Shown here one piece after another: positions 4,020-60,977 of a stretch of DNA of 64,000 bases. The stretch spans positions 2,176,001-2,240,000 of the forward strand of contig OX638351.1 of the NCBI GenBank assembly GCA_951813565.1, read 5' to 3'. Source of the stretch: an uncultured Poribacteria bacterium. GTDB lineage: Bacteria; Poribacteria; WGA-4E; WGA-3G. Made by a program: the position numbers and the translations under genes. The notes under the pieces are model-generated. The model was given only the letters and a program-made list of their open reading frames with translations, had not been told where the DNA came from and did not search any database. Every line of letters starts with the position of its first letter. Within the stretch, counting starts at the first letter, position 1.

Positions 4020-4320
4020 TCCATAGGTGTCAATTCAAGAATGTATCTTTTGTTGAAGAATTTGTAATCCCACATTGATGCCATATACCTTTCGCACCGC
4101 TGGTGCTTGGTTTCTTTTGGCACCTGTATTCTGGACACATTCCGCACCGGAATCAACGCAGCATGCGCGTATGGCATGCTGCGGGTGCTAAGATGCGATT
4201 TGCCAAAGCCTCGGAGAGGCGAAAGGTGTATCACAGCTGATGTCTGTGTTTACCAAGCCCCAGAGGGACGAAAGGTGTATCACATACACAAACGTTACTC
4301 ACTAAATTGACTCCTATGGA
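4020..4320. mobile_element. MITE-like non-autonomous element, family A
   Basis: 16-bp TIRs TCCATAGGTGTCAATT / AATTGACTCCTATGGA (1 mismatch). Contains REP-like hairpins and a 34-bp insert. A lone copy of the same end lies at 18755-18770. Confidence 0.6.
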
Positions 4321-4474
4321 GCAGTTAGGAAACCGGACCTACCTGTCGCGGCATTCAAACGTATCATGGTTTTTTAACTTAAATTAACATCTATTTTTAG
4401 AACTTATTGACATTTAAATTGGGCTTTGCTAAACTGCAACTATGCTACAATTCAGCGAAACATGAGAGGCAATA

Positions 4475-5374
4475 ATGAATATCCGATATGAAGGTATTTT
4501 TTCACCGACGGTTACACCACTTGATGAAAAAGAACGCGTTGATGAACTCGGATTCGTCAAACAACTTAACCGATTGATTGACAACGGTGTTCACGGCATT
4601 TATCTGCTGGGTTCTTCTGGTGAGTTTACGACGTTAACAAATGCGGAGCGTGAACGTGCGTTAGACATCGCCACCAAAACTATCGCCGGACGCGTGCCTA
4701 TTATCTGTTGTGTGATGGATACAAGCACTCAGCGTGTCATCCAAAACATTGAGACAGCACAACAGTTTGAGGTTGATGCAGTTGCAGCGACTCCCGGTTA
4801 TTATTATCCCTCCACTGATGACGCAGACATAATCCAATTCTATCAGGAAATCGCCGCGAGCACTGAATTACCTGTGTTAATTTACAATATTCCGTCAACT
4901 GCGAAAACCGCAATCAAACCGCATATTGTTGCGCAACTGGCAGATGATTGTGATAATATCGTTGGAATCAAAGATAGTTCGGGTGATTGGATAAACAGCC
5001 TCCATCTCTTGGCACTGCTTGGTGAACGTGACGATTTCTCCATCTTCATCGGTTCGCATTTTATTATTGGGGCAGCGTTGCTATTCGGTGCTGATGGCGG
5101 GGTCATTTCTATCGCAAACGTCGCACCGAAAGAATCTGTCGCGCTCTACAACGCCGCAAAAGCACGCGATATTGACGAGGTTGACCGACTCCAAAAGTGG
5201 ATGATCAAGCTCAGCAAACTTTATACTTATGGGCAAGGTGTAAGTGGTATGAAGGCGTGTTTAGAGATTTTGGGCGTTTGTAAGGCATATACAACAAGTC
5301 CGTTGCTGCCGCTTAGTGATGCTGAGAAAGCAGAACTCAAGGAATTACTCGCCGAGTTAGGTCTTTTATCCTAA
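4475..5374 (+). CDS. Dihydrodipicolinate synthase / N-acetylneuraminate lyase family protein
   Basis: GSSGE, IYNIP and GIKDSSG (Schiff-base Lys) motifs. Confidence 0.88.
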   Translation: MNIRYEGIFSPTVTPLDEKERVDELGFVKQLNRLIDNGVHGIYLLGSSGEFTTLTNAERERALDIATKTIAGRVPIICCVMDTSTQRVIQNIETAQQFEVDAVAATPGYYYPSTDDADIIQFYQEIAASTELPVLIYNIPSTAKTAIKPHIVAQLADDCDNIVGIKDSSGDWINSLHLLALLGERDDFSIFIGSHFIIGAALLFGADGGVISIANVAPKESVALYNAAKARDIDEVDRLQKWMIKLSKLYTYGQGVSGMKACLEILGVCKAYTTSPLLPLSDAEKAELKELLAELGLLS

Positions 5375-5526
5375 ACCATAGCAGATTTACAATTAACGAT
5401 ACACTATAGATTAGTGCACTTACAAAGCGTCCCTACCAATGAATGTAAGAGACGCAATGACTTGCGCGACTACAAACGCATCAACTCAAAAGAAAATGTC
5501 TGCTTGTTTTTATAATTCACCATATA

Positions 5527-6798
5527 ATGATTGAAATACAACCGATTCACAACCCACCTAACGCTACGATAGAGGTGCCCGGCTCAAAAAGCTTTACCAA
5601 CCGTGCGCTGTTAGTTGCTGCACTCGCACACGGAGATTCTACGTTAACCGGCGCGCTTTTCAGTGATGATACGCACTATATGTGCAACGCGCTCCGAAAA
5701 CTCGGTATCCACATTACGGAAAACAAGGAACAAGCTACCTTTGATGTCGCTGGAAATGGCGGAAATATCCCCGCTCAGGGTGCAGATCTCTATGTAGGCA
5801 ACTCAGGCACAACAACTCGTTCACTTATCAGTTTTGTCTCTCTCGGACACGGTAAATTTGTCATTGATGGTGATGAACCGATGCGGCACAGTCGCCCTAT
5901 GTCAGATTTACTTGATGCACTGACGCAGCTTGGTGTTTCTGCTCGCTCCCAATTTGAAAATGGACATCTCCCTGTTATTGTTCAAGCAGATGGACTTAAA
6001 GGCGGAAAAACGAGACTTGATACGAGCAAAAGTAGCCAGTTTCTAACATCGTTGATGCTCACCGCGCCGTGTGCTAAAAAAGGGATAGAGATTGAAGTCG
6101 TTGGTAATCTCAACACGTCTTATATTGACATAACGTTGGTGGTGATGAAGGCATTCGGTGCAAAGGTTATCCACAAAGAATATCAACGTTTCCACATTGC
6201 AGGCGGACAGCAGTATCAACCGCGTTCTTACCACATTGAGCCAGATGCCTCCAGTGCGTCCTACTTTTTCGCCGCAGCTGCGCTCACTGGTGGATGCGTT
6301 ACCGTGAAGCACTTATCCACAGGTTCTGCACAAGGCGATGTGCAATTTGTGTGTGTTTTGGAACAGATGGGATGTCAAATTACTGTTTCCGATGCCGGTA
6401 TTACTGTTCAGGGACCGCATCAGTTGAAGGGTATTGATGTAGATATGAAGACGATTTCGGATACTTCGCTGACCCTCGCTGCGATTGCCCCGTTTGCTGA
6501 TAGCACAGTCGCTATCCGAAATATTGAGCATACACGTTGGCAAGAAACCGACAGAATTCACGCGATGGTGACGGAACTCCGAAAATTAGGCGTGCATGTG
6601 GTTGAACACCGAGACGGACTTGAAATCTCACCTTCTCCGATTATGCCTGCAGCGATTGATACCTATAACGACCACCGCGTAGCGATGGCGTTTTCACTTA
6701 TCGGTTTAAAGGTGCCTGGCATTCGGATTAATGATCCTGATTGCGTTAGTAAGACGTTCCCTAACTTTTTTGAAGTGCTGCAAAAGTTATATTCCTGA
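5527..6798 (+). CDS. aroA: 3-phosphoshikimate 1-carboxyvinyltransferase (EPSP synthase)
   Basis: PGSKSFTNRAL, GNSGT, SSQFLT, EPDASSASYF, QETDRI, TYNDHRVAMAF and CVSKTFP motifs. Confidence 0.93.
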   Translation: MIEIQPIHNPPNATIEVPGSKSFTNRALLVAALAHGDSTLTGALFSDDTHYMCNALRKLGIHITENKEQATFDVAGNGGNIPAQGADLYVGNSGTTTRSLISFVSLGHGKFVIDGDEPMRHSRPMSDLLDALTQLGVSARSQFENGHLPVIVQADGLKGGKTRLDTSKSSQFLTSLMLTAPCAKKGIEIEVVGNLNTSYIDITLVVMKAFGAKVIHKEYQRFHIAGGQQYQPRSYHIEPDASSASYFFAAAALTGGCVTVKHLSTGSAQGDVQFVCVLEQMGCQITVSDAGITVQGPHQLKGIDVDMKTISDTSLTLAAIAPFADSTVAIRNIEHTRWQETDRIHAMVTELRKLGVHVVEHRDGLEISPSPIMPAAIDTYNDHRVAMAFSLIGLKVPGIRINDPDCVSKTFPNFFEVLQKLYS

Positions 6799-6813
6799 TC
6801 GCACCTCTTCCTG

Positions 6814-7421
6814 TAGGAGCGAGCTCCAGCTCACGACTTAAAAGTAGTAGGCAAAACTAAATAACCAGCATTTTCATAATTTCTTTGATAATTTTGCTGT
6901 AGTACACTATACTTACTTAATAATTTTAAGGACATTCCCTTGAGTTATAGACGCGGTTTGCAGGGATTCCAGCTTGAATAGAGAAGTAATACCATGGCAT
7001 TTAGCGATTTTAAAACAATCTCTGAAGTGCAAGAAAGGTTCAGAGTTACTTATGCGGAAGATGACTTCGTCAATGCTGAACCGGCAACCCCTTCGGTAGA
7101 GTTCTTGCGAGATTTTGAATTTACACGAGAACATATCAACGTTTTTGCGTCTGAAGCATCACGGTGTGAGACGATTATCTTTCCCGTTTTGAAGGAGAGT
7201 TATAAAGCTTATGCTGATCGATACGCACTCTGGATAAAGCAAACCATCACTTACGATGACATCTTGAACGGAACACCCGACTATTTTATCTCTACTAAAT
7301 CTGAATTAGGCAAAACCGTTGTTGGAAGTCCGTTGATACTGCTGGTTGAGGCGAAGAAAAACGACTTTGATCAGGGGTGGGGTCAATGTCTGGCGGAGTT
7401 AGTCGCCGCACAAAAAATAAA
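6814..7421 (+). repeat. 608-bp segmental duplication; inverted copy at 63243-63850
   Basis: Colinear without indels. I found four substitutions: ccc/cct, agt/aat, gac/gat and ggt/ggg. Confidence 0.92.
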
Positions 7422-7458
7422 CGCAATAAGTAGTTTTGGACTTGCAAAAAGCCCTTAA
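6994..7458 (+). pseudogene. PD-(D/E)xK-like hypothetical protein truncated by IS1595
   Basis: Nearly identical to 63053..63670 up to AQKIN, then reads into the IS terminal repeat. Confidence 0.85.
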
Positions 7459-8829
7459 GCGTTATGGAAATTTATACTTAATAGGGTATGAGAATTCGGA
7501 AAAGCACTAAACGGCGAAGACTAATTTCTAACTCTAATCTGCGAGAACTTCTGCCCCTCCAACTCACATCGGTATAAAAGTTGAGCGCGCTTGATAGATA
7601 CTTTGCAACGGTAGACAATTCTTCTAATCGTTTTGCCGTTGTGATATTAGTGTGGTCCAGCTTGTCAAGACCTTATTCTTTAAGTTCTTCTGCCATCGTT
7701 GAGTGAGTCTTCATCTCATACTCTCATTGACAAACTTATCAAAAATGCTCTCAATGCTCCTATAGTTGTATTTATAGCACGCCTCTGCGACATATAGGGG
7801 CGTGTATTCAGTCCAATAGTGGTGATGACTTCCATACCAAGCACGTTTGAGAAGTGACCAGAAGCCTTCAATCGTATTGGTATGGACATTACCGTCAACA
7901 AATTGTTCTTGATGATCAATGATATGGTGCTTCATCTCTTTACCGAGTGTGAGATAAGCCTTATACTCATCAGTCATCAACTGCGATTTATCTACTTTAA
8001 CAACTTCGCGAATAAAATTTAAGATAGTCCGTCCCGTCAAATCTTTTGCGAGTCTTGCCACAACTTTCCCACCGCGTTCAATCGCTCCGATGATAGCATC
8101 TTTATCAGTGCCACGCCCACGCTTAGCAGGATCCCTGTCCTCTTTTTTGTTCGCTTTGCGAGGTTTACCTCCGACATAAGTTTCGTCAGCCTCTATGATA
8201 CCTTGTAAGAGGATATTATCTTTAGCCATTTCAGCACGGATACATGTTCCCATACGCCACGCAGTCTTTTGATCCAAGTCCAAATCTCTTGCCAACTGAT
8301 GACTTGAAAGACTCTTTTTAGCATTCGTCATCAACGAGATAGCCAAAAACCACTTCTGAAGTGCTATCTTTGTCCCGTGAAACACCGTGCCACAAGTAAC
8401 CTTGAAAGTAGCAGTGCAATCGTGGCATTGCAAGCGTCCGATGCGTCCCAATTCCGTTTCTGTTCGTCTTGCAGCGTTTGGGCAATCACAATGTGGACAC
8501 TTCGGTTTACCCTTCCACCGAATACTCTCTAAATGTTCAATACAACTCTCTTGATCAGGGAATCGTTCCATCACTTTCAACAAATCCATCAGAAAACTCC
8601 TTTTTAGGAGTTGCTTTTTCTGACAGGTTTCTGATACAATAACTAGATAAGACAGAATGCCAGAAAAGCAACTCGCTTTTTTGTGTTCAATTAGGGGGTT
8701 AACAGCCCTCTAATTTCTTATCTAAATTGTATCATATTTTCACAATTAAAACAATCGAAAAATGTAGTCTACACAAGGATTTAGAGCGATTTTTAAAATT
8801 TTGTTGCAAGTCCAAAACTACTTATTGCG
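7422..8829 (-). mobile_element. IS1595-family insertion sequence
   Basis: Perfect 26-bp TIRs CGCAATAAGTAGTTTTGGACTTGCAA at 7422-7447 and 8804-8829, enclosing the transposase. No matching target duplication. Confidence 0.92.
7711..8589 (-). CDS. IS1595-family transposase
   Basis: Zn ribbon CPHC...CHDC, EADETYVGG, MTDEYKAY and HTNTIEGFWSLLKR. Confidence 0.93.
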   Translation of the reverse strand: MDLLKVMERFPDQESCIEHLESIRWKGKPKCPHCDCPNAARRTETELGRIGRLQCHDCTATFKVTCGTVFHGTKIALQKWFLAISLMTNAKKSLSSHQLARDLDLDQKTAWRMGTCIRAEMAKDNILLQGIIEADETYVGGKPRKANKKEDRDPAKRGRGTDKDAIIGAIERGGKVVARLAKDLTGRTILNFIREVVKVDKSQLMTDEYKAYLTLGKEMKHHIIDHQEQFVDGNVHTNTIEGFWSLLKRAWYGSHHHYWTEYTPLYVAEACYKYNYRSIESIFDKFVNESMR

Positions 8830-9101
8830 ATAAAAAATGAGTGAAAACGAGCAGATTACCGATTAGACTTATGCAATAGTGTCGTTTTCCCAAAATCCCT
8901 GTACTTCACTCCGCTAAGGCGTTGTTTGCCAAAATTCCTTGCCTCGGCAAACATACTTTTCATTTTTTTAAACCTCTTTGTCCCAAATCCCCCTCTTTAT
9001 AACATTCGGATTCATGCTATTGAATATAAGTTGGGTTAGGCAGCAAGCGAAACACAACGCTAAAACCTGATGTTATCCTTTTGCAAGCATTCAAAGTATA
9101 T

Positions 9102-10359
9102 ATGAAACTACGTGGTGCTATCATCACAGGTGTTGCGCATCTTGCGGAAAATAAACTTCGCGCTGGCTTATCTATTCTCGGTATTTTCATCGGGATTGCC
9201 AGTGTGCTTTGCATGATGGCAATCGGCGATGGAGCGAAACTTCTCATAGCCAGAGATATTGAAAAACTCGGTGGTGCAAATCAAGTTCAATTTTGGACAC
9301 GCACATCCATTTGGAAAAGTCGACGCCTCGTGCGACGCACTATCGAACGATATACCCTTGAAGATGCCCATGCTATTGAGACTGAATGCCCCAACGTTCT
9401 ATTTGCCTTACCGAAAAATGAAAGATTCCGTCCCCACCATGCTTCCAGCCGATATGGAAGCTATCCCGCCCCACATCTGGAAGGTGTCACTGCAGATTAC
9501 GCTCTCGGTATGCAATGGGAGGTGCAAGCCGGTAGATTCCTCTCTAAAAACGATATTGAAAACGCTGCACAAGTCTGCGTCTTAGGTGCCAACATTGCAA
9601 GTGAATTGTTTGGAGGAAACTCGCCGCTTGGACAAGAGGTGAAGGTTCGGTCTTCTTGGCGGTTACCCTCGGTAAGGTTGTGGGTTGTCGGTGTGATAAA
9701 AACAAAAGGCAGCAGCCTCAGTTCCTGGCGTTCTTTAGATGATACAATTTGCGTGCCGTCGACAACGGCTTTTTGGTGCCCGCTATATTGACAACCTCAT
9801 TGTCTTTTTTGAAAAAGACAATGATGTGTATTATATCATAGATTCTGTTAAGGATGTCCTTCGTAAAAGACACCGAGGAAAAGATGGTTTTATCGGTTAT
9901 TGGATACCGAAAGTTAACATCCAACGACTTGAGCATATTGAAAAGGTGATAAAAATTGCGTTAGGCGGAATTGCTGGCTTTTCGCTATTTGTTAGCGGCA
10001 TCAGTATTATGAATATGGGGCTTGTTTCTGTCGGTGAGAAGACCCGCGAGATAGGCTTGCGTAAATCGGTAGGTGCAAAACGACTTCATATCTTCTTACA
10101 ATTTTTAACAGAATCGATATGCCTCTGTTTCTGCGGTGCGGTTCTCGGCATTATAGGTGGGTGGTTTGCAGCACACGGCATGACAAGACTTGCCGTGCGA
10201 ATTCTGCCGATTGTACCGGAGTGGCCTGTTGTTCTCTCTTTACCTTGGATATTAATCTCCGTTATTTTCTCCATTTTCATGGGTGTTTGTTTTGGGATTT
10301 ACCCCGAAATACAAGCATCACGGATGTCGCCTATTGATGCCCTCAAAACAGACACGTAA
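9102..10359 (+). pseudogene. MacB/FtsX-type ABC transporter permease, frameshifted near 9760
   Basis: N-half (RAGLSILGIFIGIASV, GRFL) and C-half (GISIMN, EKTREIGLRKSVGA, QFLTES, PIDAL) lie in different frames with overlap. Confidence 0.85.
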
Positions 10360-10421
10360 GAAAAAACAATTAAAATCCTAACGTACTTAATCGTCATTTT
10401 TCCATATCAATTTTTTGTATA

Positions 10422-10536
10422 ATACCAATTCTATGAATTATTTTCTCTTTTGAAAAGAAATGTCCGAGGCGCAATGAATTGCGCGACTACAAACGGCCTA
10501 TTTCTTTAAAGAGAAGTTATTTTTTAGAAATGGTAT
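10422..10536. mobile_element. MITE-like element with IS630-like TACCA ends enclosing a REP
   Basis: About 37-bp imperfect inverted arms (ATACCAATTCTATGAATTATTTTCTCTTT.. / ..AAAGAGAAGTTATTTTTTAGAAATGGTAT) around GAGGCGCAATGAATTGCGCGACTAC. Confidence 0.55.
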
Positions 10537-10670
10537 AAATTACCTGTAGGTCGGATAGAACGGTAGCGAAACCCGATAAGTATACTAAATATGCCCATGA
10601 CATTTATTGGTTACCCAATCCTACGATGGGTGACAGGGTCATCCGATTTCATACAAATCTATAGATTGAT

Positions 10671-13580
10671 CTAATCCACTTTAACGGAAGCTAATGATTC
10701 ATCAATTTTTAGAGGTTTTTCCTCAAGCAAAATATGGAAAATCCCACGCTGTTTTGTAGCAATATAAAGTTTGCCACTACTCACCGCTACAGATAGCACT
10801 TTATCAGGGATACTTGAAGAGATCTGATCCCACTTATTATTAGAATCTAAGCGATAAATACCCATATCCCCAACACCATATAAACTTAATCCGTCCACAG
10901 CGAGTTTATCTATGACGATATGTCTTCCAACATTATCGGTGAGCATACGCCAATATTCGCCCGTTTGCGAACATAAGACACCTTTATCTGTTGCCACATA
11001 AACTTTCATATTCGCAAGGACGATATCCTTAATATGGGTGAAGGTTGAGGGTAGACTCAACGTTATATCCCTCCAACTTTCTCCGCCATTGATGGATTGG
11101 AATAGTTTCCCATCTCGTTTGCCAACATAGACGGTTTGTGACGAAGCAGCTATCTTGAACCCAATATCCATTTCATTATCAGGGTGGTTGTTTGTATCAA
11201 TCAAGCCGGTGTCCGTAAATACTAAACTGTCCGTATTCCATTTTAAAAGCCGTTTATCGTATGCTATGAAAAGTGTATTATTTTCAGTGAATTCTATATT
11301 CTGTTTGCCTCCAGAGAACAGCGTAGTGGACGATGATTTGACGTTTTTCCACAGTTCCCGAGATGAGACCCTTTGAATCATTGAAAACGTAGCTTCACCT
11401 ATGCGTAAACGGAAAATGTCTAAATCCTCACCTTGCGGTGAAATTAGATAAAGAGATTCGCCAACAGTCACAAACTTGGAATCAGTAAGATGATGTACAT
11501 AAGACCCTAACTGTCCAAGCTGTTCGGATATGAACTGCCCGTAATCAAAACGCACTGGCACCCATATTTTCTCGTTATTCATCGTTTCATAAATGTCGCT
11601 ACCTGTATATACATAGAGTCGATTGTTAAATACAATCAACTCTTGGACATCTGTTCCTACAATTCCATTCATGAAAGAGTGCCACGTTGTGCCACTATCA
11701 ACTGTGCGATGAATGCTGAACTTATCCAATTTGTAAAAAGTATTCTCATCTGTCGCTATAACTGTAGCATGTGCTGACGGTGTCGATGTTGCGTCAAATC
11801 CAAGGTTTGTCCACGTTTGTCCTGCATCTGTTGATTGGAAAGTTGGAATACCTAAAACGAATAACGTAGGACCTTTTGCTATAATACGAGTTGGGCTTGC
11901 AGGTGATGTGCCTATCATGAAATATTTATCTTTAGGCGTTATATCAGTCCATGTCCTGCCGAGATTCGTTGAGTGGGATATTTTACGAGTCCCTCTGTTC
12001 TTTGCATCGGAAAAGTCATTGATAAGAAAATCTTGCCCCGTTGCTACATAAAGGTTATTCTCATCAACTGCCAATGCATGGACTGTATTGGCAGTATCAT
12101 CCACCACAGATAATCGTTCCAAATCACCTAAAATCAAGCGATAAAGCCCTTGGTTTGTGCCAATAAACACAGCATCACCCATCGCGGCGATTGCTGTTAT
12201 CTTTTTATCTGTCAAGCTATCATTAAGTGGAGTCCACTTTCTACCAGCATCGGTAGACCGAAATACCCCTTTATCCTGTGTGGCAATATACATGACAAAA
12301 TTTGTGCGTGATTGTCGTTCGGATGTTTTGCCTCTTATGACCAAACCGATAGGTTCCCCAATTGGACGGGAAGAAAATACCTGCCATGAAATGCCATCAT
12401 CAGTTGACGTGTATATATTATCGCTACCAACAACATATAGCGTATCCTGATATTCAGCGATTGGCGCCCCGATGATACTTGTAGGTATGCTTGTGCTGAT
12501 TTTTCTCCATGATGTCGTGCCTTTGCTTAATCTGTAAACACCAGTCCATGAAAATGCGTAGAGATTACCATTTGAGGTAGCAAAGATATTATAGACAGGA
12601 TCTCCTTGCGGCCCATTTGTCTGTTCCCATCCCGATGATAAATACGTAACATTCTCGCGTGCATTATTTACTAAGACCGCTTCAGATACCTGTGATTTAT
12701 CACCATCAACATTACCATCATTAACACGCTTCCCTACTTGATTACGCAAGGCAGGTTTTGAGACAATATCAACGTGTATAGGAGATTCAACAATTTCAAT
12801 CGTTGGTTCTGATTGGGCATTAAAGTCATAAGGTTTTTGAATAAGACTCAGGCGTTGACTCATCACACCCAGCAATAATATAACTATAACCGCAGCAGTG
12901 CCAAGAGCCATCCATGGTAGTAATGGTTTTGCTACCTATGGTGTCGGTTTTATGTCTGAAATCTGCTTCATGATGCTCTCGGTTAGATCTGTAGATAGCT
13001 GTAAACCGCCAAATGCTTCAGAAATCAAGAGATGTTCTTCCGCTTCTAATCGGTTTCTTGCCCGATGCAGTCTACTTTTGATGGTGTTGGCGGATACACC
13101 TAAGAAATTACCTATATCCTTTACGGACATCTCACTGAGATAATAGAGGATAATGACAGTACGTTCACTCTCCGGCAATTTTTCCAATAGTTTCTTGACG
13201 ACTTCGCGGTAATGTTCTCTAATTTCTGTCATACGTTGTTCTGATTGGTATTGTGTATGATAGGTTCTATTTCTTTCTTCAATCGGGATATCTTCCAAGA
13301 ACGGCGTCGCGTCTTTATTTCTTTGTAGCCAATTGAAGCACAGTCGATTCACAATCACATAAACCCATCCATCAAACAGTTTTGGATTCTTTAGTTTGGA
13401 CAGGTTTTTGTATACCTGGATGAAGGTATCTTGTGTTATCTCTTCGGCGATATGGTAGTCTCCAATCTTCCGCCAAGCGAGGGCGTGGATTCTCTTCTGA
13501 TACTTATGTACTAATAGGCTAAATGCCTCCTCTTCACCAGTCAAAATCCTGTGTATCAGTTGGACAATGTTATTTTCCAT
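10671..13580 (-). pseudogene. ECF sigma factor - TM - BNR/beta-propeller fusion, split by one in-frame TAG (12936-12938)
   Basis: Sigma regions 2/4 (AEEITQDTF, TIKSRLHRARNRL) read ..KPTP*VAKPLLPWMALG.. in frame with the 746-aa ORF, which carries S.D.G.TW Asp-box repeats. Confidence 0.8.
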
Positions 13581-13633
13581 ATTGCTACCTCGTTATTATC
13601 CTCGGGCATGTAGGACCCGATACGGGAGTACTT

Positions 13634-14214: not shown

Positions 14215-14282
14215 GGTTTATCTCCTATTCCAATTTTTTGTTGAGAGGATTTGCTCAAAATGTGATGCGTCCGGTTGATGCC

Positions 14283-18463: not shown

Positions 18464-18673
18464 TATAGTAGATTTTAGAATTACTTGGACACTCTGCACC
18501 AGCGAGGTTAGAAAATCTCGCCTACCGGTGTGAATGTAAGAGGCGACAAATCATGCAGGATACCATAAGCATATTCTGCCACGCGCATTTGGCGTTGATT
18601 TGGCAATGAATTGAGCGACTACAAACGCGGCAAATACTAAGAAATGTTCACTTAATTTTATAATTCACTATAG
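18464..18673. mobile_element. MITE-like element (related copy at about 5376-5525)
   Basis: Imperfect TIRs TATAGTAGATTTTAGAATTA / TAATTTTATAATTCACTATA. Internal GAATGTAAGAG..GCAATGA.TTG.GCGACTACAAACGC is shared with 5441-5479. Confidence 0.5.
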
Positions 18674-18882: not shown

Positions 18883-19344
18883 GTGAAAGAAGATAAAAAA
18901 TCTCCGCAGAACGCAACGATTACTGTCAATCGGAAAGCACGCCATGACTATCATCTGCGTGATCGGTATGAGGCAGGCATCGTTTTGCAGGGGACTGAAG
19001 TAAAAGCAATTAGAAACGGACAGTTTAACCTAACCGATAGTTACGCGCAAATAACAGATGGAGAGGTGTTCCTCGTTGATGCATTTATCGGTTTATATGA
19101 TCAGGGAAATCGGATGAATCATGAACCGAAACGCACCCGTAAACTGTTGCTGCATCGTAGCGAAATAAAAAAACTGGAACGGTTAATTCAGTCAAAAGGA
19201 ATGACTCTAATTCCTACACGTGCCTACTTCAACGGCGGCAAGGTGAAATTAGAGTTAGCGGTCGCAGAAGGGAAGAGATTTTACGACAAGCGCGATAAAA
19301 TTGAGCGCGAACACGCGAACCGAGAAATACGAACATATTCATAA
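18883..19344 (+). CDS. smpB: SsrA-binding protein
   Basis: NRKARHDY, EAGIVLQGTEVKAIR, RKLLLH and GKRFYDKR motifs. Confidence 0.97.
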   Translation: MKEDKKSPQNATITVNRKARHDYHLRDRYEAGIVLQGTEVKAIRNGQFNLTDSYAQITDGEVFLVDAFIGLYDQGNRMNHEPKRTRKLLLHRSEIKKLERLIQSKGMTLIPTRAYFNGGKVKLELAVAEGKRFYDKRDKIEREHANREIRTYS

Positions 19345-19362
19345 CTCACAAAAGTAAATTTT

Positions 19363-19712
19363 GGGGGTGAACTTGGTTTCGACGGAGGTAATTGCGATAC
19401 AGGTTGCATGTCGAGGTCTCCGCAGGCCTCGTTAAATAGGCGGAACAATTATAATTGCTGATCAAGAATTAGCACTAGCTGCCTAAGCAGCTACGCTTGG
19501 CCGACCTGTTTCCCGTCAGGGAAGCTAAAGCGCCGCAATACGGGATAGCGGTTTGATTGTTCTCAAGGACCATTCCGTGAACCTAAATTTGAGATAGCCT
19601 CCATGAATCCCGCATAGGGGAGTCTGGACAGCGAAATTCAAAACCTGTGATAAGCATGTAGTAACCTCTATCAATATACTTTCGGACGCGGGTTCGATTC
19701 CCGCCACCTCCA
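19363..19712 (+). ncRNA. ssrA: tmRNA
   Basis: 5' GGGGGTG..GGTTTCGAC and 3' GACGCGGGTTCGATTCCCGCCACCTCCA with a G3-U acceptor pair. Tag ORF at 19457-19486 encodes ADQELALAA*. Adjacent to smpB. Confidence 0.96.
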
Positions 19713-19818
19713 TCACCAATTGACACAAATTTGCGTATCCCCAGTAGGCGAGGTTTCAAACCGCGCCTACCAAGAATCTTTATATATTTCTGACTTTACA
19801 ATGACGGGACGAAGCACG

Positions 19819-45616: not shown

Positions 45617-45866
45617 TAACGACTTGTGCCAGTTAAGTGAAAGTTTTGTTGTTTTTCACAATTGTTCATATTTTGGAATCAACGCCAAATACGCTTTTGG
45701 CATTTGGCCGGAGCGATCTCCGAATCGCGACACGTTTGCAATCGGGAATCGGAGTTCCCTCCTACCTTGAGGACAGCAGCTATCGGAAAAGTTGCGGAAT
45801 GCAAACCCAAACAAGAGGAACATGTGAAATATAAATATACTAAATGTTAACTGGGACAACGCGTCA
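45617..45866. mobile_element. MITE-like element, family B
   Basis: Ends TAACGACTTGTGCCAGTTAA / TTAACTGGGACAACGCGTCA. Same end sequences as 60645-60977; another end at 45950-46015. Confidence 0.6.
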
Positions 45867-48776: not shown

Positions 48777-48929
48777 GAGAGTCAGATAATATCACATCCA
48801 TCGCTAAAAAACAACCAGATTTCTAATTCATCTTTAGGACTGACCAATGCCTATAGGCGTTTGGTGTTGATTCGGATTTATCCGATTGTTGAAACAGATT
48901 CAATATAAATTTGCCAATAGGTTTCCCTA

Positions 48930-52456: not shown

Positions 52457-52753
52457 GTTGACATGAAGACCATAGGAATCAGAACAAAACAACCAAATTT
52501 ATTGCTTGTTTCTCCAATCAAAAAATTCCTTGTTATTTATATATAGAATATGTTATATTAACTAAAACTGTGATTTTGCATGAATAGTGCATCAGTTCTG
52601 CTTTTTTTTCTAACTTTTTTGGGACAATTGTGTCTAATTCATAGAGGTATGATTGGAATTTTCTGCAAGAATATCTATATCAGGAAACTTGTGCGGTGCT
52701 TCGGGGTGACTATTCAGTAGATAGACAGGATTTGCCATAGACTAAGGTAAAAG

Positions 52754-53413: not shown

Positions 53414-53568
53414 ACGTATTCAATATTACCGGAATAGTTATCAGTAAAGAGAATTTTGCGAGAATTAAAAGGCACTTTAACTAACACCGAGCACTGTCTT
53501 CAAATATAGGCGGACATCTGAAAGTTGAGCCAACCTATTTTTCGGCAGATAGGTGAAGGAGAAAATTA

Positions 53569-56500
53569 ATGAGCACCAGGGAAAATTATGCAGAATTACA
53601 GACAAGGATTTTAGACGCGCGGCGTGTGTGGAAACGCAGCCTCTTCTGGACAGGAGCTGCTATTGTACTGATAGGATTCTTAGCGATTCTGGTTGGAGAA
53701 TCAATCGTTGATTGGCTGATGCCGCTGCCAAGTGTCGTACGTATTGCACTGCTTGCGGGTATCGTCGGCGCAACACTCTATCTACTTTACAAATACCTTA
53801 TTCAACCGATGAGAGCCTCACTTACCCTCCGAGATGTTGCGCTCAATGTTGAAGAAAGCCATCCTAATCTTGAGGATAGGCTTGTTAGTGCTGTACAATT
53901 TGGTGACCGCGAATCTAATGACCCAGTTGAAGCACACATGCTTCAGCGGTTGCTTGAAGATACGACACAACGGATAAAAGGTATTGATTTCAAAGCAACC
54001 ATTGACCATAGCCGGACGCGGAAGTATGTTGGTATTGCAACTTTAGTTATTGCAGCGTGTGGTTTACTTACGCTTCTGTTTCCTACCGAAACACATACCA
54101 GCCTTATGCGGATATTTGCGCCGTGGGAAAAAACTGACCCGATTTTGACGACCAAGGTTAATGTTACACCTGGCGATGCTCGTATCCTAAGCGGAAAAAG
54201 TCTGCCTATTGAAGTTACCGTCACTGGCAAGGATGCGGAAAAAGTTGTCTTGACGTATTATAGCAAAGATATGCCGCCTACTGCAGAAAACGCAGGTAGC
54301 AAACAAGAAATTAATATGGTGCAGAATCCGGAGGATAAACGCGGATTTGCTTATGAGATTTTCAATGTTGACGCGGATATGGAATACTATGTTGTAGCCA
54401 ATGAAACGACATCTGAACGCTATACAGTAGAAGTTTTTGAAATGCCGCGGGTGGAAGAGATTTCCGTTGCCTATACCTATCCTGAATATACAAATCTCAA
54501 GCCGGTTGTCCAGCAAGGAAGTGGAGACATTCAAGCAGTTGTCGGCACGACCGCAGAACTCAGAATCACTGCTAATAAGGCTATCCAAACAGCAACACTT
54601 ACACACCAAAATTCAGAATCTGAAGATGTAACTGAAGCAGAGGTTGCAGCTGAAGCGGTTACTTTAAAATCCTCAGAAATGGTCATTGCGGACGGTAATA
54701 TACTCACGAAAACTTTAGAAGTTAGTGAAGATGGAAAATATACTGTTGAACTTCTTTGTATTGATGGGTTCAATAATGAAGTGCCGATTGAGTATACTAT
54801 CAAAGCAATGCCAGATAATGCCCCTGAAGTGGTTATCAAAGAACCCGGCCGTGACGTGAATGCAACAAAATTGGAAGAGGTGAAAATTGTCGCTGAGGCA
54901 ACAGACGACTATGGTGTTGAACAGTTTAACTTAATGTATCGTATCGGTGCTGGCGAATTGAAAGAACTTGCCTTAGAATCTATAAGCAAACCTGTAGCAG
55001 AAGGTGCTGATGTGAGATACAGTAAACACAACCGAGTTGGCACCTATACCTTTTATCTGGAGGAATTTGATGTAGAACCGGGTGAGGTCATCTCTTACTA
55101 TGCTCATGCTACTGACAATAACACACTTACAGGACCGGGTGAAGCAAGCAGTGAGATTTACTTCATAGAAGTAGCCCCCTTCAATCGAAGACTTGAAGAG
55201 GGAGGAGAATGCGAAGTCGGTACGCCGAATCCATTCCTTGCGTTAATCGCTTCCCAGAAGCAGGTTATCCGAGAAACGTGGAAGCACATTAACGCAGAAC
55301 CTTCAACACTTACAGAAGAATACACGTCTGTAGTTAAGAAAACTGGTGAGAAGCAAGGTGAGGTGAAGGATAGAACGCAGCGGGTAACAGACGAACTTAG
55401 CGCTGATATGCAAGAATTGCAGGTCGACCCAGAAATCATGATGAACCTTGAAGAGGCAATTGATAAAATGGACGAAGCAAAAGGCAAACTTGATGCTATT
55501 CAACCGCAAGTAGCAATCCCACCAGAACAAGCTGCGCTTGAACTGCTCATCAAAGTCAATCTCGAAATTCCCAAAGTGCTTAATCAAGCGAGGCAAAGTG
55601 AGCCGGGACTTGCTGAGAACTTTGAATTGGAATTAGAAGAGTTGCAAAACGAGCTTGAGCAGAATCAAGAAGAACTTGAACGCGAGCTGCAAGAACAGAC
55701 GCAGCAAATGTTAGATCAAGCACGCGAAATGCTGGCACAACAACAAGGCCTGAATCAACAAAGCCAGCAAATGAGCAAAGAAAATCAACCTTCTCCAAGT
55801 GACATGCAACAGAACAGTCAACAACAAGGGCAGCTATCACAGCAAGCGCAGCAGATGTCAGAACAACTCGGTCAAATGCAAGGTAATGCGCAAGGCACGC
55901 AAGAACAACGCTTAGGTCAAGCTGGGCAAGCCATGCAACAGGCAGGCGAACAGATGCAACAAGCTTCGCAAGGCATGCAACAGCAGCAACCCCAAATGAG
56001 TGCCGCTAAAGGTGAAAAGGCGGAAGAAAGGCTTGAACAAGCCATTGATCAACTTGAAAGAGCCTCCGCTGAATTCACAGATAATGCGTTAGAGCGCGCT
56101 TCCCAACAACTCCAACAGTTGACTGCGGAGCAATCTGATGTTCAACAGCAGACGCAGGAACTGCAGAAAAGATCAGAGCAATCTGGCATGCGTCCCGAAG
56201 ATTATCGCCAAGCCTCTGAACTCGCAAATCAGCAGCGTCAGCTTCAACAAGACTTAGAGTCGGTTGAAAACAATTTGAGTAATCTTCAGCAACAACTTAG
56301 TCAAGAAAATCCTGAGGCCTCCCAAAACGTCTCAGATGCCTCAAGAAGGCTCTCGGAAGAACAAACTGCGGAAGACATGGCAACAGCGCAGCGCGCATTG
56401 CAGTGGCGCAGTTTACAGTCCGCAGACCTGAATCAGCAAGAGGTAATAGAGACATTAGAGCAGGCACAAGCTGATCTTCAACAGGCAAGAGCCAATATGG

Positions 56501-57099
56501 CACAAACTGAAGAGGAACAACTTGAAGCTGCCCTGGAACAACTTCAAAGCTTTGAAGAACAGATGCAAGATATGCAGCGTGAAAGTCAAGCGATGGAGGG
56601 ACAGGAGCAGACAGAGGAACAACAACAGCGAGAGCAGCAACTCGCTGAACAACAACAGCAGCTTCTGGAACGGATGCAGCAGGCACAGCAGGCTATGGAA
56701 AATGCTCAGCAAGGACAACAACCCGGACAGGAAGGACAAGAGGGACAACAGCCTGGACAAGAGGGACAACAGCCTGGACAAGAGGGACAACAGCCTGGAC
56801 AACAAGGGCAAGGCGAAAATGAAAATGACTTGGCGCGCGGCGGTGCTGAATCCTATCAGGAAATTAAAGAGTTGTGGCTCGGTATGCTTGATGCTATGCA
56901 GACCCCTCCGGGCAATCGTTCGCGTCCCGCCCCGAAATATGAACTCGTTATCCGTGATCTGCAGAAACTGGAGTCTGCTATAGAAGAACGACTCAATATG
57001 CTTCAAGAGATAAAACAGTTGGCGCAGGTTGCGAAAGAGGATGTCCCGCCTGAATATCGTAGACTTGTTGATAACTATTACGAGTCTTTAGCGAAATAG
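53569..57099 (+). CDS. DUF4175-like large membrane-anchored coiled-coil protein
   Basis: P.LEDRLVSAV, YPEYT, D..PEV, ATDDYG, Q-rich helices and VPPEYR.LV.NYY.SL. Confidence 0.75.
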   Translation: MSTRENYAELQTRILDARRVWKRSLFWTGAAIVLIGFLAILVGESIVDWLMPLPSVVRIALLAGIVGATLYLLYKYLIQPMRASLTLRDVALNVEESHPNLEDRLVSAVQFGDRESNDPVEAHMLQRLLEDTTQRIKGIDFKATIDHSRTRKYVGIATLVIAACGLLTLLFPTETHTSLMRIFAPWEKTDPILTTKVNVTPGDARILSGKSLPIEVTVTGKDAEKVVLTYYSKDMPPTAENAGSKQEINMVQNPEDKRGFAYEIFNVDADMEYYVVANETTSERYTVEVFEMPRVEEISVAYTYPEYTNLKPVVQQGSGDIQAVVGTTAELRITANKAIQTATLTHQNSESEDVTEAEVAAEAVTLKSSEMVIADGNILTKTLEVSEDGKYTVELLCIDGFNNEVPIEYTIKAMPDNAPEVVIKEPGRDVNATKLEEVKIVAEATDDYGVEQFNLMYRIGAGELKELALESISKPVAEGADVRYSKHNRVGTYTFYLEEFDVEPGEVISYYAHATDNNTLTGPGEASSEIYFIEVAPFNRRLEEGGECEVGTPNPFLALIASQKQVIRETWKHINAEPSTLTEEYTSVVKKTGEKQGEVKDRTQRVTDELSADMQELQVDPEIMMNLEEAIDKMDEAKGKLDAIQPQVAIPPEQAALELLIKVNLEIPKVLNQARQSEPGLAENFELELEELQNELEQNQEELERELQEQTQQMLDQAREMLAQQQGLNQQSQQMSKENQPSPSDMQQNSQQQGQLSQQAQQMSEQLGQMQGNAQGTQEQRLGQAGQAMQQAGEQMQQASQGMQQQQPQMSAAKGEKAEERLEQAIDQLERASAEFTDNALERASQQLQQLTAEQSDVQQQTQELQKRSEQSGMRPEDYRQASELANQQRQLQQDLESVENNLSNLQQQLSQENPEASQNVSDASRRLSEEQTAEDMATAQRALQWRSLQSADLNQQEVIETLEQAQADLQQARANMAQTEEEQLEAALEQLQSFEEQMQDMQRESQAMEGQEQTEEQQQREQQLAEQQQQLLERMQQAQQAMENAQQGQQPGQEGQEGQQPGQEGQQPGQEGQQPGQQGQGENENDLARGGAESYQEIKELWLGMLDAMQTPPGNRSRPAPKYELVIRDLQKLESAIEERLNMLQEIKQLAQVAKEDVPPEYRRLVDNYYESLAK
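56737..56799 (+). repeat. Perfect 21-bp coding tandem repeat x3
   Basis: CAAGAGGGACAACAGCCTGGA (QEGQQPG). Confidence 0.92.
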
Positions 57100-57415
57100 G
57101 TAGGTTCTGACACGCTAACCATTCAATAGGGACAATGCGGGAAGAATCCGGTTGTCCCTACAATATTTTCTGGTAGGTCGGTTGCCTAACTGCACCACGT
57201 CATAAGCATCAACTTAGCGGACTCAACCCTGGTAGGTGCGGTTTCTAACCGCACCGGACTTACGCAAGTTTGCTCAAAGTAATCAGTAAAACATGACATA
57301 TTTGTAGGAGCGCTTTGTCCGCGCGATATATCGGCGTTGCAAACGCCTCCTACAAGAGTGTTTTCGGACAATACATAATTTTGGTAGACATAGTTATTGA
57401 TAATGGAGGAGGACT

Positions 57416-58231
57416 ATGGAACGACCTTTTATTGTTAAGCCCGGCGATAATATTAGTCTGGACGGGGTAGGAAACGGATGTACCCCCGAATATACAGGGG
57501 CTTATCGAAAAAAGGGTGAAACGAAAAAACCGTTGAAGAAACTACATAAACAGATGCTCAAACTTCAGGAGTTGCTTTACGCAGAGAGTCAACACGCGCT
57601 TCTGATTATCCTGCAAGGCATGGATACATGCGGCAAGGATGGTACTATCCGGAAGGTAATGGCTGGTATTAACGTACAGGGTTGTGATGTAGTTAATTTC
57701 AAAGTCCCTTCAGCAGATGAGGTTTCTCGCGATTTTTTATGGCGCGCCCACAAAGCCGTTCCACAGAAAGGAAAAATCGGAATTTTCAACCGTTCGCATT
57801 ATGAGGATGTACTTGTTGTTCGTGTGCATGATCTTGTGCCAAAATCGGTTTGGAAACAACGTTACCAGCAGATTAACGACTTTGAAAAAATGCTGGTTGA
57901 AAACGGCACGGTTGTCCTAAAATTTTTCCTACATATCTCAAAAGACGAACAGAAAGAACGTCTCGAATCCCGAATCAACGACCCGTCAAAGCATTGGAAA
58001 ATCACCGAAGCCGATATTCGCGAACGCGCTTATTGGGATGATTACATGCAGGCGTACGAAGCAGTCCTCCAAAAATGTAGTACCGATTGGGCACCGTGGT
58101 ATATTATACCTGCAAATAAAAAATGGTATCGGAATCTTGTTATCACGGAACGCATTGTTGAAACACTTGAGGGGTTAGACATGAAATTCCCCAAACCCAC
58201 TTCTGATGTGTCAATATTTTCTGTGGACTAA
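57416..58231 (+). CDS. ppk2: Polyphosphate kinase 2 family
   Basis: QGMDTCGKDGT Walker A, FNRSHYEDVL, KFFLHISK.EQ and APW..IPA..KWYR motifs. Confidence 0.92.
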   Translation: MERPFIVKPGDNISLDGVGNGCTPEYTGAYRKKGETKKPLKKLHKQMLKLQELLYAESQHALLIILQGMDTCGKDGTIRKVMAGINVQGCDVVNFKVPSADEVSRDFLWRAHKAVPQKGKIGIFNRSHYEDVLVVRVHDLVPKSVWKQRYQQINDFEKMLVENGTVVLKFFLHISKDEQKERLESRINDPSKHWKITEADIRERAYWDDYMQAYEAVLQKCSTDWAPWYIIPANKKWYRNLVITERIVETLEGLDMKFPKPTSDVSIFSVD

Positions 58232-58272
58232 TACCAATTAACCCGATTTGTAGCGCGAGGTCTCTGTGCCTC

Positions 58273-58313
58273 GCAATTAACTTTATCAGAAAACTTCTGA
58301 TAAAGTTAATTGC
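58273..58313. repeat. Perfect 19-bp AT-rich palindrome
   Basis: GCAATTAACTTTATCAGAA-AAC-TTCTGATAAAGTTAATTGC. Confidence 0.85.
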
Positions 58314-58337
58314 TATAACATAAATGGAAATCCTACT

Positions 58338-58634
58338 GTGAAATTCAATCTCTTGAGCGATAATAAAAAAATCGTAGACACAATAATGTTGGTAGGTTCA
58401 CTACTAATTTGCGTTGGAGTAATAATGCAGATTGCGAGTATTGCAGCAAATCATTCTTTATGGTTTTTAGGACTGGGGGCACTCGTAGCCTTCTGGAGTG
58501 CTTTTTCTCAAATATTCGTGAAAGCGAAGAAGTCTGATATCAATCCTCCAAAGGTTATCGCAAACATCTCATTTTTGATTTTGGTTGTTTTCTGGGGAAT
58601 ATTTTTAACGTGGATATATGCGATAACACAGTAG
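58338..58634 (+). CDS. Small 3-TM hypothetical protein
   Basis: Three hydrophobic helices; fills the intergenic gap. Confidence 0.5.
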   Translation: MKFNLLSDNKKIVDTIMLVGSLLICVGVIMQIASIAANHSLWFLGLGALVAFWSAFSQIFVKAKKSDINPPKVIANISFLILVVFWGIFLTWIYAITQ

Positions 58635-58687
58635 TTTTTACTGTTATGTTCATGTATTTTTGGTATTGAAGGAATAAGGGACATTTG

Positions 58688-59467
58688 ATGCTTTCAACCA
58701 AACAGTTAAAGCAATTTGAAGAAGAGGGATATCTGCTACTTTCAGGTTTGATTCCGAAAGACATTATCGTCCAAGCGGAACAAGCAATGTGGCATTCGAT
58801 GGGTATGGATGCGGATGATCATGACACATGGGAACACTTCCAACGACCATTTCTCACCGGTTTTTACATAGAAAACATGTCAAACGAAAAGCGCATTGAG
58901 CTTTTCGGCTTAACGCATCCAGATATATTGGCGTGTTGCACACCAGATTATCTTACCGTCCTTAATCAACTCGCTGAAAGATATCCGAAAATTCCACACT
59001 GTAAAAGCAAGCATCCAGATGGTATCTGGGCGATGAATCAATTCCCTATTTCTGCTGAGTGGAATGCACCTTCCCCTCACCTTGATGGATACTCAAGGGA
59101 TTTACGGTTAGATCCGGGGACTTTTCGAGCATCAAGTTTAACCTATCTTACCGATGCCAATTCCCATCAAGGAACAACAATGATATGGCCCGAAGGCCCA
59201 CAAAGAATTCGGGAGTTCCGTAAAAAGAATCCAAATTTTTCAAACAATGTCCGGTCTATGCTCACACAGTTACCAAAGATAGATTTAGGTGAACCGATGG
59301 AAGTTGTGGCTAAACAAGGTGATGTGTTGCTTTTTCATCACCTACTCCCGCATTCCAACACATTAAATGTTGGCACTTCCCCACGCTTCGCAATTCGGTT
59401 TATGTGTTTATGTTTTGATTGTCGCGCATGGCAGAAAAGAGGGGAGTGGAATATCTGGATGCCGTAG
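58688..59467 (+). CDS. PhyH-family Fe/2OG oxygenase
   Basis: F.EEGYL, PHLD, YLTD, GDV..FHH..PHS and PR motifs. Confidence 0.85.
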   Translation: MLSTKQLKQFEEEGYLLLSGLIPKDIIVQAEQAMWHSMGMDADDHDTWEHFQRPFLTGFYIENMSNEKRIELFGLTHPDILACCTPDYLTVLNQLAERYPKIPHCKSKHPDGIWAMNQFPISAEWNAPSPHLDGYSRDLRLDPGTFRASSLTYLTDANSHQGTTMIWPEGPQRIREFRKKNPNFSNNVRSMLTQLPKIDLGEPMEVVAKQGDVLLFHHLLPHSNTLNVGTSPRFAIRFMCLCFDCRAWQKRGEWNIWMP

Positions 59468-59475
59468 CGAATATT

Positions 59476-59747
59476 AGCGTTGTAGCGTTTGAGCAACTTC
59501 CGAACCCAGTCCGGCGTGCATCCTACAATCTCAGCAACTTCGCGAGGTGTTCGCGGATGTGTGGTATCAGCAAGAAGCCAAATAATATGCCAGTGCGTCC
59601 GTTCAATAGGACATTCACATTCAAGATACCTTTGTTTCAGAACTTCTACTGAAAAGTGAGGGGAAACCCCATGTTTTTTATTTTTCATCTGATCACAATA
59701 ACACATCCAAAAAATAAATGAAAGAACAATCATATTAATATGGTATA
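59476..59747 (-). mobile_element. Partial IS630 copy (one end plus transposase 5' part)
   Basis: Near-identical to 33958-34229. Confidence 0.9.
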
Positions 59748-59824
59748 ACTCATATACAACCGATCTAAGATTCTAATACCAAAAAGATCGCGAACCTTAT
59801 AAACTCGCGATTAAGGAGAAAATA

Positions 59825-60616
59825 ATGAACCAAAATCTATACTACACCAAGTTAAAATCAGCAAGGATGAATATTACGTATCTTATTATGCCGTTTATGT
59901 TAGTTTTTGCACTTACCTTTGCCCTCTTTTTAGTACAAACCGCAATCGCACAAGAAGTTTTAGTGCAAACTGGATTTGAGGAATTCACTTTCGGTGAACC
60001 CCCAACAGATTGGGAGGTCCGAGGTAATCAGATGCAAGTAACAGGCGACACAGTCAAAACCGGTGATAAATCGCTTGGTATTTTAGGTGGCGCGAATGAC
60101 GATAGGGTTGGAGTCGCCATTGAAACCGAAAATCCGATTATATCAGTTGAATTTTGGGTATATATTAAGGGCGCTGGGCGTTCCTTCAATCTCAAAGTCG
60201 TTTCTGCCGATGACATAGCACAAAACGATGGAGGGGTATATCTCAATTGGAATGCAAACGCGACACGTCTTTACAACGGTTCCGCTTGGGTAGCGGTAGA
60301 CGACTTCCCATTTGAAACTTGGAAATATGTCCGAGTTGTTGCCGATGTTGAAAATAGCGTATTTGACTATTACGTCGGAGATGACAGAGACCAAGCACTA
60401 ACTGCTGCACCCAAAACGGACCTTGCTTTTCGTAAACCCGCAACAAACCCTGTTGTCCAGTGGATTGTTTTTCACGTTTATTCCACAGTCGCACAAGGCT
60501 TCGTAGATGATTTATTTGTCTATGAAGGTGCTGAACCAGTGAACCCCGCACCCGTGAATCCAAAAGGAAAACTCACAACATTCTGGGGAGATGTCAAGAA
60601 ACACTCCTCGTTTTGA
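59825..60616 (+). CDS. Secreted jelly-roll-like protein with C-terminal GKLTTFWGDVK motif
   Basis: Signal peptide ending TAIAQ; paralog of 61020..61811. Confidence 0.75.
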   Translation: MNQNLYYTKLKSARMNITYLIMPFMLVFALTFALFLVQTAIAQEVLVQTGFEEFTFGEPPTDWEVRGNQMQVTGDTVKTGDKSLGILGGANDDRVGVAIETENPIISVEFWVYIKGAGRSFNLKVVSADDIAQNDGGVYLNWNANATRLYNGSAWVAVDDFPFETWKYVRVVADVENSVFDYYVGDDRDQALTAAPKTDLAFRKPATNPVVQWIVFHVYSTVAQGFVDDLFVYEGAEPVNPAPVNPKGKLTTFWGDVKKHSSF

Positions 60617-60644
60617 TGCGACAATTTCCTTTATGAATAGTAAT

Positions 60645-60977
60645 TTAACGAGTTGTGCTAAATAACTTTTTGCAACATATTATTTCACATAAGCAGAACG
60701 TTTGTCCGTGTTTCCTACTGGTTGATATGCTCTTCAGTCCCGACAAATGCCATAAGCGCATTTGGCGTTGATTTGGTAGGGACGATATGTTTATAGGAGT
60801 ACGGCAATGACGCCCTCTTTAGTCCCGACAAATGCCATACGGGGAATGCCAAAAGGCATTCATACCGTTGATTTGGCGCATTTGGCGTTGATTTGGTAGG
60901 GACGATATGTTTATATGACAACACCTAATATCTGTGAAAACAACAAAAACAATTAGTTAACTGGCACAAGTCGTTAA
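60645..60977. mobile_element. MITE-like element, family B, with duplicated REP plus 34-bp inserts
   Basis: Ends TTAACGAGTTGTGCTAAATAAC / GTTAACTGGCACAAGTCGTTAA; internal direct repeat at 60730-60796 / 60815-60915. Confidence 0.65.
60742..60775 (+). repeat. 34-bp hairpin micro-element (family: 4149-4182, 18545-18602, 45675-45708, 48842-48874, 60742-60775, 60827-60895, 60841-60875)
   Basis: GACAAATGCCATAAGCGCATTTGGCGTTGATTTG; see findings. Confidence 0.8.

Follow-up and report, generated by a model that had tools for sequence, protein, structure and literature searches.

How small can a piece of DNA be and still enter new sites of a bacterial genome as a discrete unit? The question is raised by a stretch of 64,000 nucleotides (nt) from an uncultured Poribacteria bacterium, a sponge symbiont (contig OX638351.1, positions 2,176,001 to 2,240,000; hereafter the window); the genome (G000) consists of a single contig of 5.43 Mb. 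A first-pass annotation described in this window seven copies of a minimal hairpin element, claimed to insert into repetitive extragenic palindromes (REPs) and into its own copies. The unit comprises a 25-nt bulged hairpin, the heptamer GTTGATT, and two variable bases; it is non-coding. The claim is borne out by the discrete ends of the unit, the lack of target duplication, a series of states of a host MITE (a miniature transposable element with inverted repeats), and 31 outer copies rebuilt by removal of the inner ones; it is very probable that the unit has inserted repeatedly. Its insertion at C^G (the caret marks the junction) is clean, its nesting is stepwise, and ready-made composites have spread on larger MITEs. 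Overall, the unit is real, restricted to its lineage, and surprising in its size and nested order.

The copies were collected with a strict pattern (a 5-nt head, ATGCC, a loop, a GCAT-like arm, GTTGATT, and two bases), so the constancy of GTTGATT is partly built into the search and the upper stem is likewise fixed by it. This pattern matched 551 copies in the genome, where about 3 would be expected by chance, and one copy in 2 Mb of order-3 Markov sequence; hence, chance is excluded as the source of the pattern. The length was 34–36 nt in 545 of the 551 copies. A looser iterative pattern, with a handful of false positives, removed 602 copies at 480 loci genome-wide. When the unit was excised exactly at its proposed ends, the joined flanks formed a 20-mer found elsewhere in the genome for 229 of the 551 copies, the best value among the cuts compared: sliding the boundary by 1 nt gave 203, and duplication-type cuts gave 27 and 18. 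Within each contiguous cluster, all copies lie on the same strand (0 of 480 loci mixed).

The host MITE exists in 17 copies displaying, at its two target sites, the states 0/0, 0/34, 0/69, 34/34, 34/69, 34/129, and 34/153 nt, i.e., a series leading from the empty element through one unit, a unit in its loop, and a unit in the tail of the latter to the addition of one or two tail-less sister units (see below). All four filled/empty combinations of the two sites are present in the MITE family. A coding site was also entered: the transposase gene of an ISAs1 insertion sequence (IS) harbors an in-frame 36-nt copy at TCC^GTTG. In 12 of the 13 homologues fetched the site was visible; the insert was found in none of these 12, and five carry the exact TCC^GTTG allele. 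The filled gene (G000:C1:3912539-3913390, L094/L263) gains 12 residues beside the conserved DALLTQ motif, and its filled site is represented by three copies in G000. The target is not duplicated at the empty alleles of either the MITE or ISAs1, and the ends of the unit are asymmetric; it was thus rejected as a MITE with terminal inverted repeats.

In the nearest relatives (~88% identity), the spacers are wholly rebuilt at the two placeable window sites, 60742-60895 and 48842, while three sites fell beyond the DNA retrieved. In four conspecific runs, the contigs covering a 13-kb stretch with 11 loci end at repeats; conspecific contigs also show exact skips of 35 nt and 68 nt, with sides below 30 nt and possibly representing paralogues. 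Among metagenome loci chosen for holding a copy, 89 were long enough for testing and 53 could be placed on G000. The length was the same in 45 of them; three differ by one tandem unit (±34–35 nt), one by 20 nt, two by whole MITEs, and the remaining two, loci of 91–95% identity and probably paralogues, by nested units.

Each of the seven stretches quoted by the first-pass annotation reads as quoted at its coordinates (Table 1), but the one at 18545 is not a simple copy: the stem of this 34-nt unit is interrupted by a tail-less sister of 28 nt. The covariance model that had been proposed as a check was trained on 83 copies; six of the seven are its top six window matches, with E=0.016 for 48842. 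The site at 10467 was correctly seen as the intact target of the 18545 copy, and this empty allele was found 125 times in the genome. The site at 63970, taken for the empty counterpart of 60742, is instead a related REP variant, and the exact empty site occurs 19 times elsewhere in the genome. As for the five copies said to sit at C^G, four are clean (18545, 60742, 60827, and 60841) and the one at 4149 is not: C and G flank it, its 34-nt excision yields a string with no genomic copies, and in the most similar empty allele, present twice, AG takes the place of the unit plus one extra C.

Table 1. Copies of the unit, its tail-less sister, the host MITE, and comparison sites in the window (positions are counted from its first letter)
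Feature	Position	Strand	Remarks
34-nt tailed unit, perfect-stem variant	4149..4182	-	ends in CC; replaces ~2 target bases of a REP-like repeat
Tailed unit interrupted by tail-less sister	18545..18602	+	clean at GAGGC^GCAATG
28-nt tail-less sister	18552..18579	+	CAT leader and the same 25-nt bulged hairpin; net +24 nt in host stem
34-nt tailed unit	45675..45708	-	3' end of GTAGGAGCGA-type REP; covariance-model match; exact empty allele absent from genome
Decayed 33-nt copy	48842..48874	+	covariance model E=0.016
34-nt tailed unit	60742..60775	+	at AGTCCC^GTAGGG, site 1 of host MITE
Outer 34-nt unit	60827..60895	+	site 2 of host MITE; loop split by nested copy
Inner 35-nt unit, GGGGA-headed subfamily	60841..60875	+	at ATAC^GCGC in loop of outer copy
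331-nt host MITE with terminal inverted repeats	60646..60976	.	carries 60742, 60827, and 60841 as passengers; 17 genomic copies
Empty allele of the 18545 target	10466..10481	+	one of 125 in genome
Related GTAG-type REP variant without insert	63970..63995	+	5 copies; not the exact empty allele of 60742

No parent IS of the host MITE was found by its ends. Conspecific sequences differ by the presence or absence of a relative of this MITE, a block of 217 nt (L322). The MITE is bracketed by two adjacent 263-aa open reading frames (ORFs; 59825-60616 and 61020-61811) without a Pfam match and conserved in relatives, and a 273-nt repeat at 59476-59749 has at least six copies, 99–100% identical, elsewhere in the genome. 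Other parts of the window encode an IS1595-family transposase (7711-8589, minus strand; one of ~16 copies) and smpB followed directly by tmRNA (18883-19715).

The predicted fold of the unit is a stem of 10–11 pairs with a bulged C, present in the main subfamilies, and a 4–5-nt loop, followed by an unpaired tail; in addition, the C preceding the unit pairs with the opening G of the tail. In 52 distinct sequences, 93% of the cells were paired and 43 cells were changed on both sides, in three columns; none of 500 shuffles was as high, and slid registers gave 10 or fewer. The covariation of the stem noted previously is real but limited to three stem columns and few subfamilies. Since the upper stem is fixed by the pattern and the variants fall into few subfamilies, it reflects few compensatory events, not many. 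On the tailed strand, G-T pairs exceed A-C mismatches (31 vs. 11 in 83 distinct sequences), suggesting that this is the strand that folds.

The tail had been regarded as invariant and as the defining feature of the family. GTTGATT does hold, partly by search design, but the last two bases vary and tail-less relatives exist: of the occurrences of the 25-nt hairpin, 382 carry the tail, 95 are tail-less and have a CAT leader, and 21 are found in other settings, vs. a single occurrence in the reversed genome. Because the hairpin also occurs without the tail, the bulged hairpin top is the module common to the tailed and tail-less members, and a delimitation of the family by its tail is not supported. 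The CAT-led 28-nt sister resides mostly in the stems of tailed units, with a net gain of 24 nt, and is also present inside other repeats in the genomes G053 and G001. Related arrangements were encountered as well. In G093 (L411-L430), a genome from another genus of the family, one REP family numbers more than 100 copies, and the bare hairpin is a fixed part of their loop. Tail-less perfect palindromes made of two left unit halves and their flanks occur in G000 (e.g., near 974411 and 1023880) and look as though two opposite copies had recombined via the hairpin. Larger MITEs with TACCA-type ends sit inside unit loops (e.g., near 4547251 in G000). In G001, harboring at least 61 near-identical ISAs1 copies, the unit is almost lost and GTAGGAGCGA-type REPs are few.

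The covariance model detected the unit in all 65 genomes of this Poribacteria family, while 11 of 35 genomes outside the family returned one or two weak matches (best E 2.6e-5). With the exact pattern, it was found in 36 of 39 same-genus genomes and in none of 16 genomes of other families. A collection of species-representative genomes contained at least 114 such stretches; among the 80 matches listed, 79 belonged to Candidatus Poribacteria and one to an uncultured bacterium. Viral contigs gave no match to the one exact pattern searched. The sole window match to Rfam at the gathering score was tmRNA, so the unit corresponds to no Rfam family. No description of the unit was found in the literature searched, a search to which most subscription journals were external, and the portions available of PMC3184786, PMC3733652, and PMC6006769 do not mention it.

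The junctions follow a rule on the left and a looser one on the right. In the genome, 441 copies do not follow the TTTG of another copy, and the left edge of at least 416 of these comes after a C; in relatives, 118 of 146 copies follow C and 20 more follow G, mostly in tandem. Inner tandem junctions end in TG in 87 of 87 cases in the genome, with two exceptions in relatives, and TG endings are found in 22 of the 32 clean junction families. The upstream 4-mers differ (ACCC, TCCC, CCCC, ATAC, and AGGC). An empty paralogue was available for 66 of the 246 junction families and lacking for 180; the 66 comprise 32 clean families, 8 swapping one base, 20 with a net change of −1, 5 of −2, and 1 of −4. 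The earlier picture of precise insertion throughout, with a mere 1-nt ambiguity, thus applies to 32 families of 66. Empty alleles at non-clean junctions were deduced from paralogues, and some non-clean families may stem from the choice of a wrong allele.

Clean entry occurs only at C^G; sites of the C^T and C^A type have 1–3 of their bases replaced, with variation in the two final bases of the tail. The recurrent non-clean targets are CC^TAC, CC^TAT, CC^AAC, and CC^GTT; they show an extra C before the unit, a loss of 1–3 target bases, and a last tail base often equal to that of the target. The window copy at 4149 belongs to this class. The CC^TAC ends of inverted REPs are recurrent targets, and a REP foot is found no more than 30 nt away from 280 of 458 loci, vs. 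30% of random intergenic points. A single guide-pairing rule of the IS608 or REP type could not be fitted to both ends because the right-hand bases vary. An origin of the TG/CA endings in CpG decay was rejected as unsupported, the genome-wide CG ratio being 1.03.

Which enzyme, if any, could make such junctions? The reading favored here, tentatively and with somewhat less than even confidence, is that the unit is moved as single-stranded DNA by the REP-associated tyrosine transposases (RAYTs) of the host, which are HUH nucleases acting in trans. The enzyme would read the bulged hairpin top common to the tailed and tail-less members and cut both target and donor after a C; the 3' C of the target would be joined to the G (or C-G) with which the unit begins. 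Joining at the right end would be exact if the next target base is G, and otherwise 1–3 target bases would be lost. Every insertion would leave a new C^G at its left edge, which would account for the head-to-tail arrays with the inner copies all ending in TG. As stated in the available parts of the sources, E. coli TnpA-REP cuts C|T, e.g., GACC|TACA and GGCC|TACA (PMC3333891), an altered guide shifts the cuts to CA or CC, and the stem bulge is required (PMC8266576). RAYT/HUH action is favored since this cutting agrees with the C rule of the left edge as well as with the CC^TAC targets, and also since copy number is higher in RAYT-bearing genomes (a median of 26 in 25 genomes vs. a median of 5 in the 15 without a RAYT over the cut-off; p=4e-4, related genomes not being independent).

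The ten Y1 matches in G000 are represented by five IS605-type TnpA, two proteins of a second clade, and three RAYTs; the three RAYT genes exceed the NCBIfam cut-off, one of them having an internal TAG, and an intact RAYT lies at G000:C1:242008-242493 (L010). The HUH/Y1 chemistry proposed by the first-pass annotation is partly supported: a RAYT fits the junctions and the distribution, its role in moving the unit being putative. The IS200/605-type TnpA, named there as the other option, is unlikely: the IS605 copies of this genome follow TTAG/TTAA, and no significant replichore bias was seen for the unit, with an uncertain origin. G000 has 51 TnpB matches, most of them from one 375-aa family, besides the five IS605-type TnpA; copies insert after TTAG/TTAA. 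For the second Y1 clade (L006 type), no relation to copy number was found (p=0.32).

Several observations weigh against movement by RAYTs. The overall REP load co-varies (rho 0.53) and confounds the link between RAYTs and copy number, and two genomes without a RAYT over the cut-off carry many copies (G055, 141; G014, 45). Copies of a REP would be expected to flank the cognate RAYT gene; among the 30 RAYT-flank loci listed, four contain a copy of the unit, in none of them does an array stand on each side of the gene, and the visible flanks are occupied by REP arrays of the usual GTAG/GTGG type. There is no GTRG guide at the foot of the unit. If strand transfer by an HUH enzyme were the whole process, the target should stay complete, yet 34 of the 66 junction families are not clean, and one end of the CAT-led sister lacks a preceding C on either strand. 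No significant leading/lagging bias was seen (212 vs. 246, p=0.12), the GC skew being irregular and the origin poorly defined. Two of the three genomes scored as zero by the exact pattern contain decayed copies, and the 53 placed loci include no solo copy present in one and absent from another of 99%-identical conspecific loci.

A rather unlikely alternative is nick-primed template switching with no dedicated transposition. A REP nick made by a RAYT or by repair would give a 3' CC end annealing to GG beside an existing copy; polymerase would copy the hairpin and tail and return to the target through 1–2 nt of microhomology. Such a process explains why an extra C may stand at the left edge and why 1–3 bases of the target are lost, the last base being often identical to the target's; the tail-less perfect palindromes of two hairpin halves and the tandem units differing by ±34–35 nt among conspecifics (3 of 53 loci) are also in line with it. 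It leaves unexplained the exact stop two bases past GTTGATT, implied by the 34–36-nt length of 545 of 551 copies, and the clean insertion at a coding, non-REP site of ISAs1.

It is unlikely that a different, hitherto unrecognised enzyme is responsible, possibly acting via RNA, e.g., a reverse transcriptase (RT) beside Cas1 or an unannotated nuclease. The excess of G-T over A-C on the tailed strand speaks for it but is equally compatible with single-stranded DNA. Of 261 loci flanked by co-directional ORFs, 151 have the tailed strand as the sense strand (p=0.013), G055 is rich in copies without a clear RAYT, and G000 contains two RT loci, one adjoining Cas1. At the same time, no autonomous element with the ends of the unit was seen in this genome, and the three CRISPR repeats are unlike the unit. 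Integration by Cas1 would duplicate the target, which counts against this particular route. The RT next to Cas1 is accompanied by a 54-repeat CRISPR array (G000:C1:3989138-3996431); two further arrays elsewhere in G000 have 48 and 26 repeats. Derivation of the unit from a CRISPR repeat was rejected: the hairpin top and tail are absent from all three arrays as compared by eye.

Many copies are passengers on larger repeats, and independent insertions number in the tens. It is nonetheless very unlikely that the unit is a passive sub-module that arose by few ancient insertions or rearrangements and hitch-hiked on REPs and MITEs with the aid of gene conversion: the seven largest context clusters hold 333 of 392 loci, whole unit-bearing MITEs are present or absent between strains, identical host-plus-unit composites recur in distant relatives, and G093 has its more than 100 hairpins fixed inside one REP family, but single-linkage clustering yields 49 context clusters with 31 singletons (a few being pattern false positives), the insertion in the ISAs1 gene is species-specific, and all four filled/empty MITE combinations exist, though inter-MITE recombination could also yield the latter.

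Other candidates were tried as well. IS110/IS1111 elements were rejected, as PF01548 is absent from G000 and PF02371 was found in none of five copy-rich genomes, the controls being positive. A search for IS91/Y2 proteins gave no match in the same number of copy-rich genomes or in its positive control. The only tyrosine recombinase gene was rejected too, an integron-like G^TT crossover being incompatible with the boundaries. A search for an autonomous parent, in which an orphan head and an orphan tail within 4 kb would enclose an ORF, returned 17 pairs, none element-like by eye; the unit was thus rightly described as devoid of a coding partner bearing its ends in this genome.

Movement by RAYTs, if true, would place the unit among the smallest mobile DNAs in bacteria, set a lower bound on the size of mobile DNA, and provide a very small, duplication-free insertion substrate. 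RAYTs cut and transfer strands in vitro; full insertion of a defined unit was not found in the literature searched, as far as the portions available extend. The sharp ends, hundreds of copies, empty alleles, and nested order make the movement of tiny repeats directly testable, the components being a single protein of 160 aa, an oligonucleotide of 35 nt, and a REP as its target; failure of the RAYT in this assay would point to a new enzyme. It is also possible, if rather doubtful, that a new class of ultra-minimal mobile DNA is represented here: single-hairpin units of 28–36 nt, read by an enzyme through one bulged stem top and parasitising one another as well as REPs and MITEs according to a fixed hierarchy, with a dedicated sub-family for each of loop, tail, and stem. 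These would be the smallest complete substrates for HUH insertion in vivo or the substrate of an unrecognised mobilising enzyme.

Among known systems, small dispersed repeats (SDR) were reportedly described in Nostoc punctiforme and its relatives by Elhai et al. in Genome Res in 2008. The mechanism of their mobility is, to our knowledge, not known. They are nearest in kind to the unit, being tiny, non-coding, and apparently mobile, but their host belongs to another phylum and the likeness is drawn from descriptions in citing papers only. In the parts available of these papers, SDR5 is said to insert precisely within the HIP1 palindrome (PMC4390886); SDR repeats are also cited in PMC3116915 and in the reference list of PMC2884548.

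The IS200/IS605 elements resemble the unit in the lack of target duplication and in the hairpin followed by an 8–9-nt tail, as at their right end. The unit differs in its single hairpin, in the absence of a fixed target tetranucleotide, in some target loss, and in showing no clear lagging-strand bias, and it is unlike the genome's own IS605/TnpB ends (15 right ends viewed, plus left ends). A non-autonomous derivative of this family was rejected on account of the single hairpin, the lack of a match to IS ends, the variable upstream 4-mers, and the 34 of 66 junction families that are not clean. Insertion sequences targeting REPs (IS1397 and the IS110 family) insert in REP palindromes and are full-size and transposase-encoding. 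The unit shares this target; it has no transposase, and no IS110 gene was found in the genome.

A further parallel is offered by REPs, bacterial interspersed mosaic elements (BIMEs), and REP doublets (REPINs) with their RAYTs. According to the accessible portions of PMC3333891, PMC8266576, PMC6006769, PMC3733652, and PMC3116915, they have in common with the unit the bulged hairpin, intergenic location, hundreds of copies, and junctions after C, along with tandem amplification and occasional in-frame gene insertion; the imperfect hairpin with a conserved bulge is likewise present in the unit. Unlike them, the unit lacks a GTAG/GTGG foot (TCAAC stands there on one strand and host sequence on the other) and has a fixed 3' tail instead; it is arranged head-to-tail without inverted doublets (0 of 480 loci mixed), does not flank RAYT genes, and uses REPs as targets. 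Overall, the unit behaves like a parasite of the REP system without being a REP itself.

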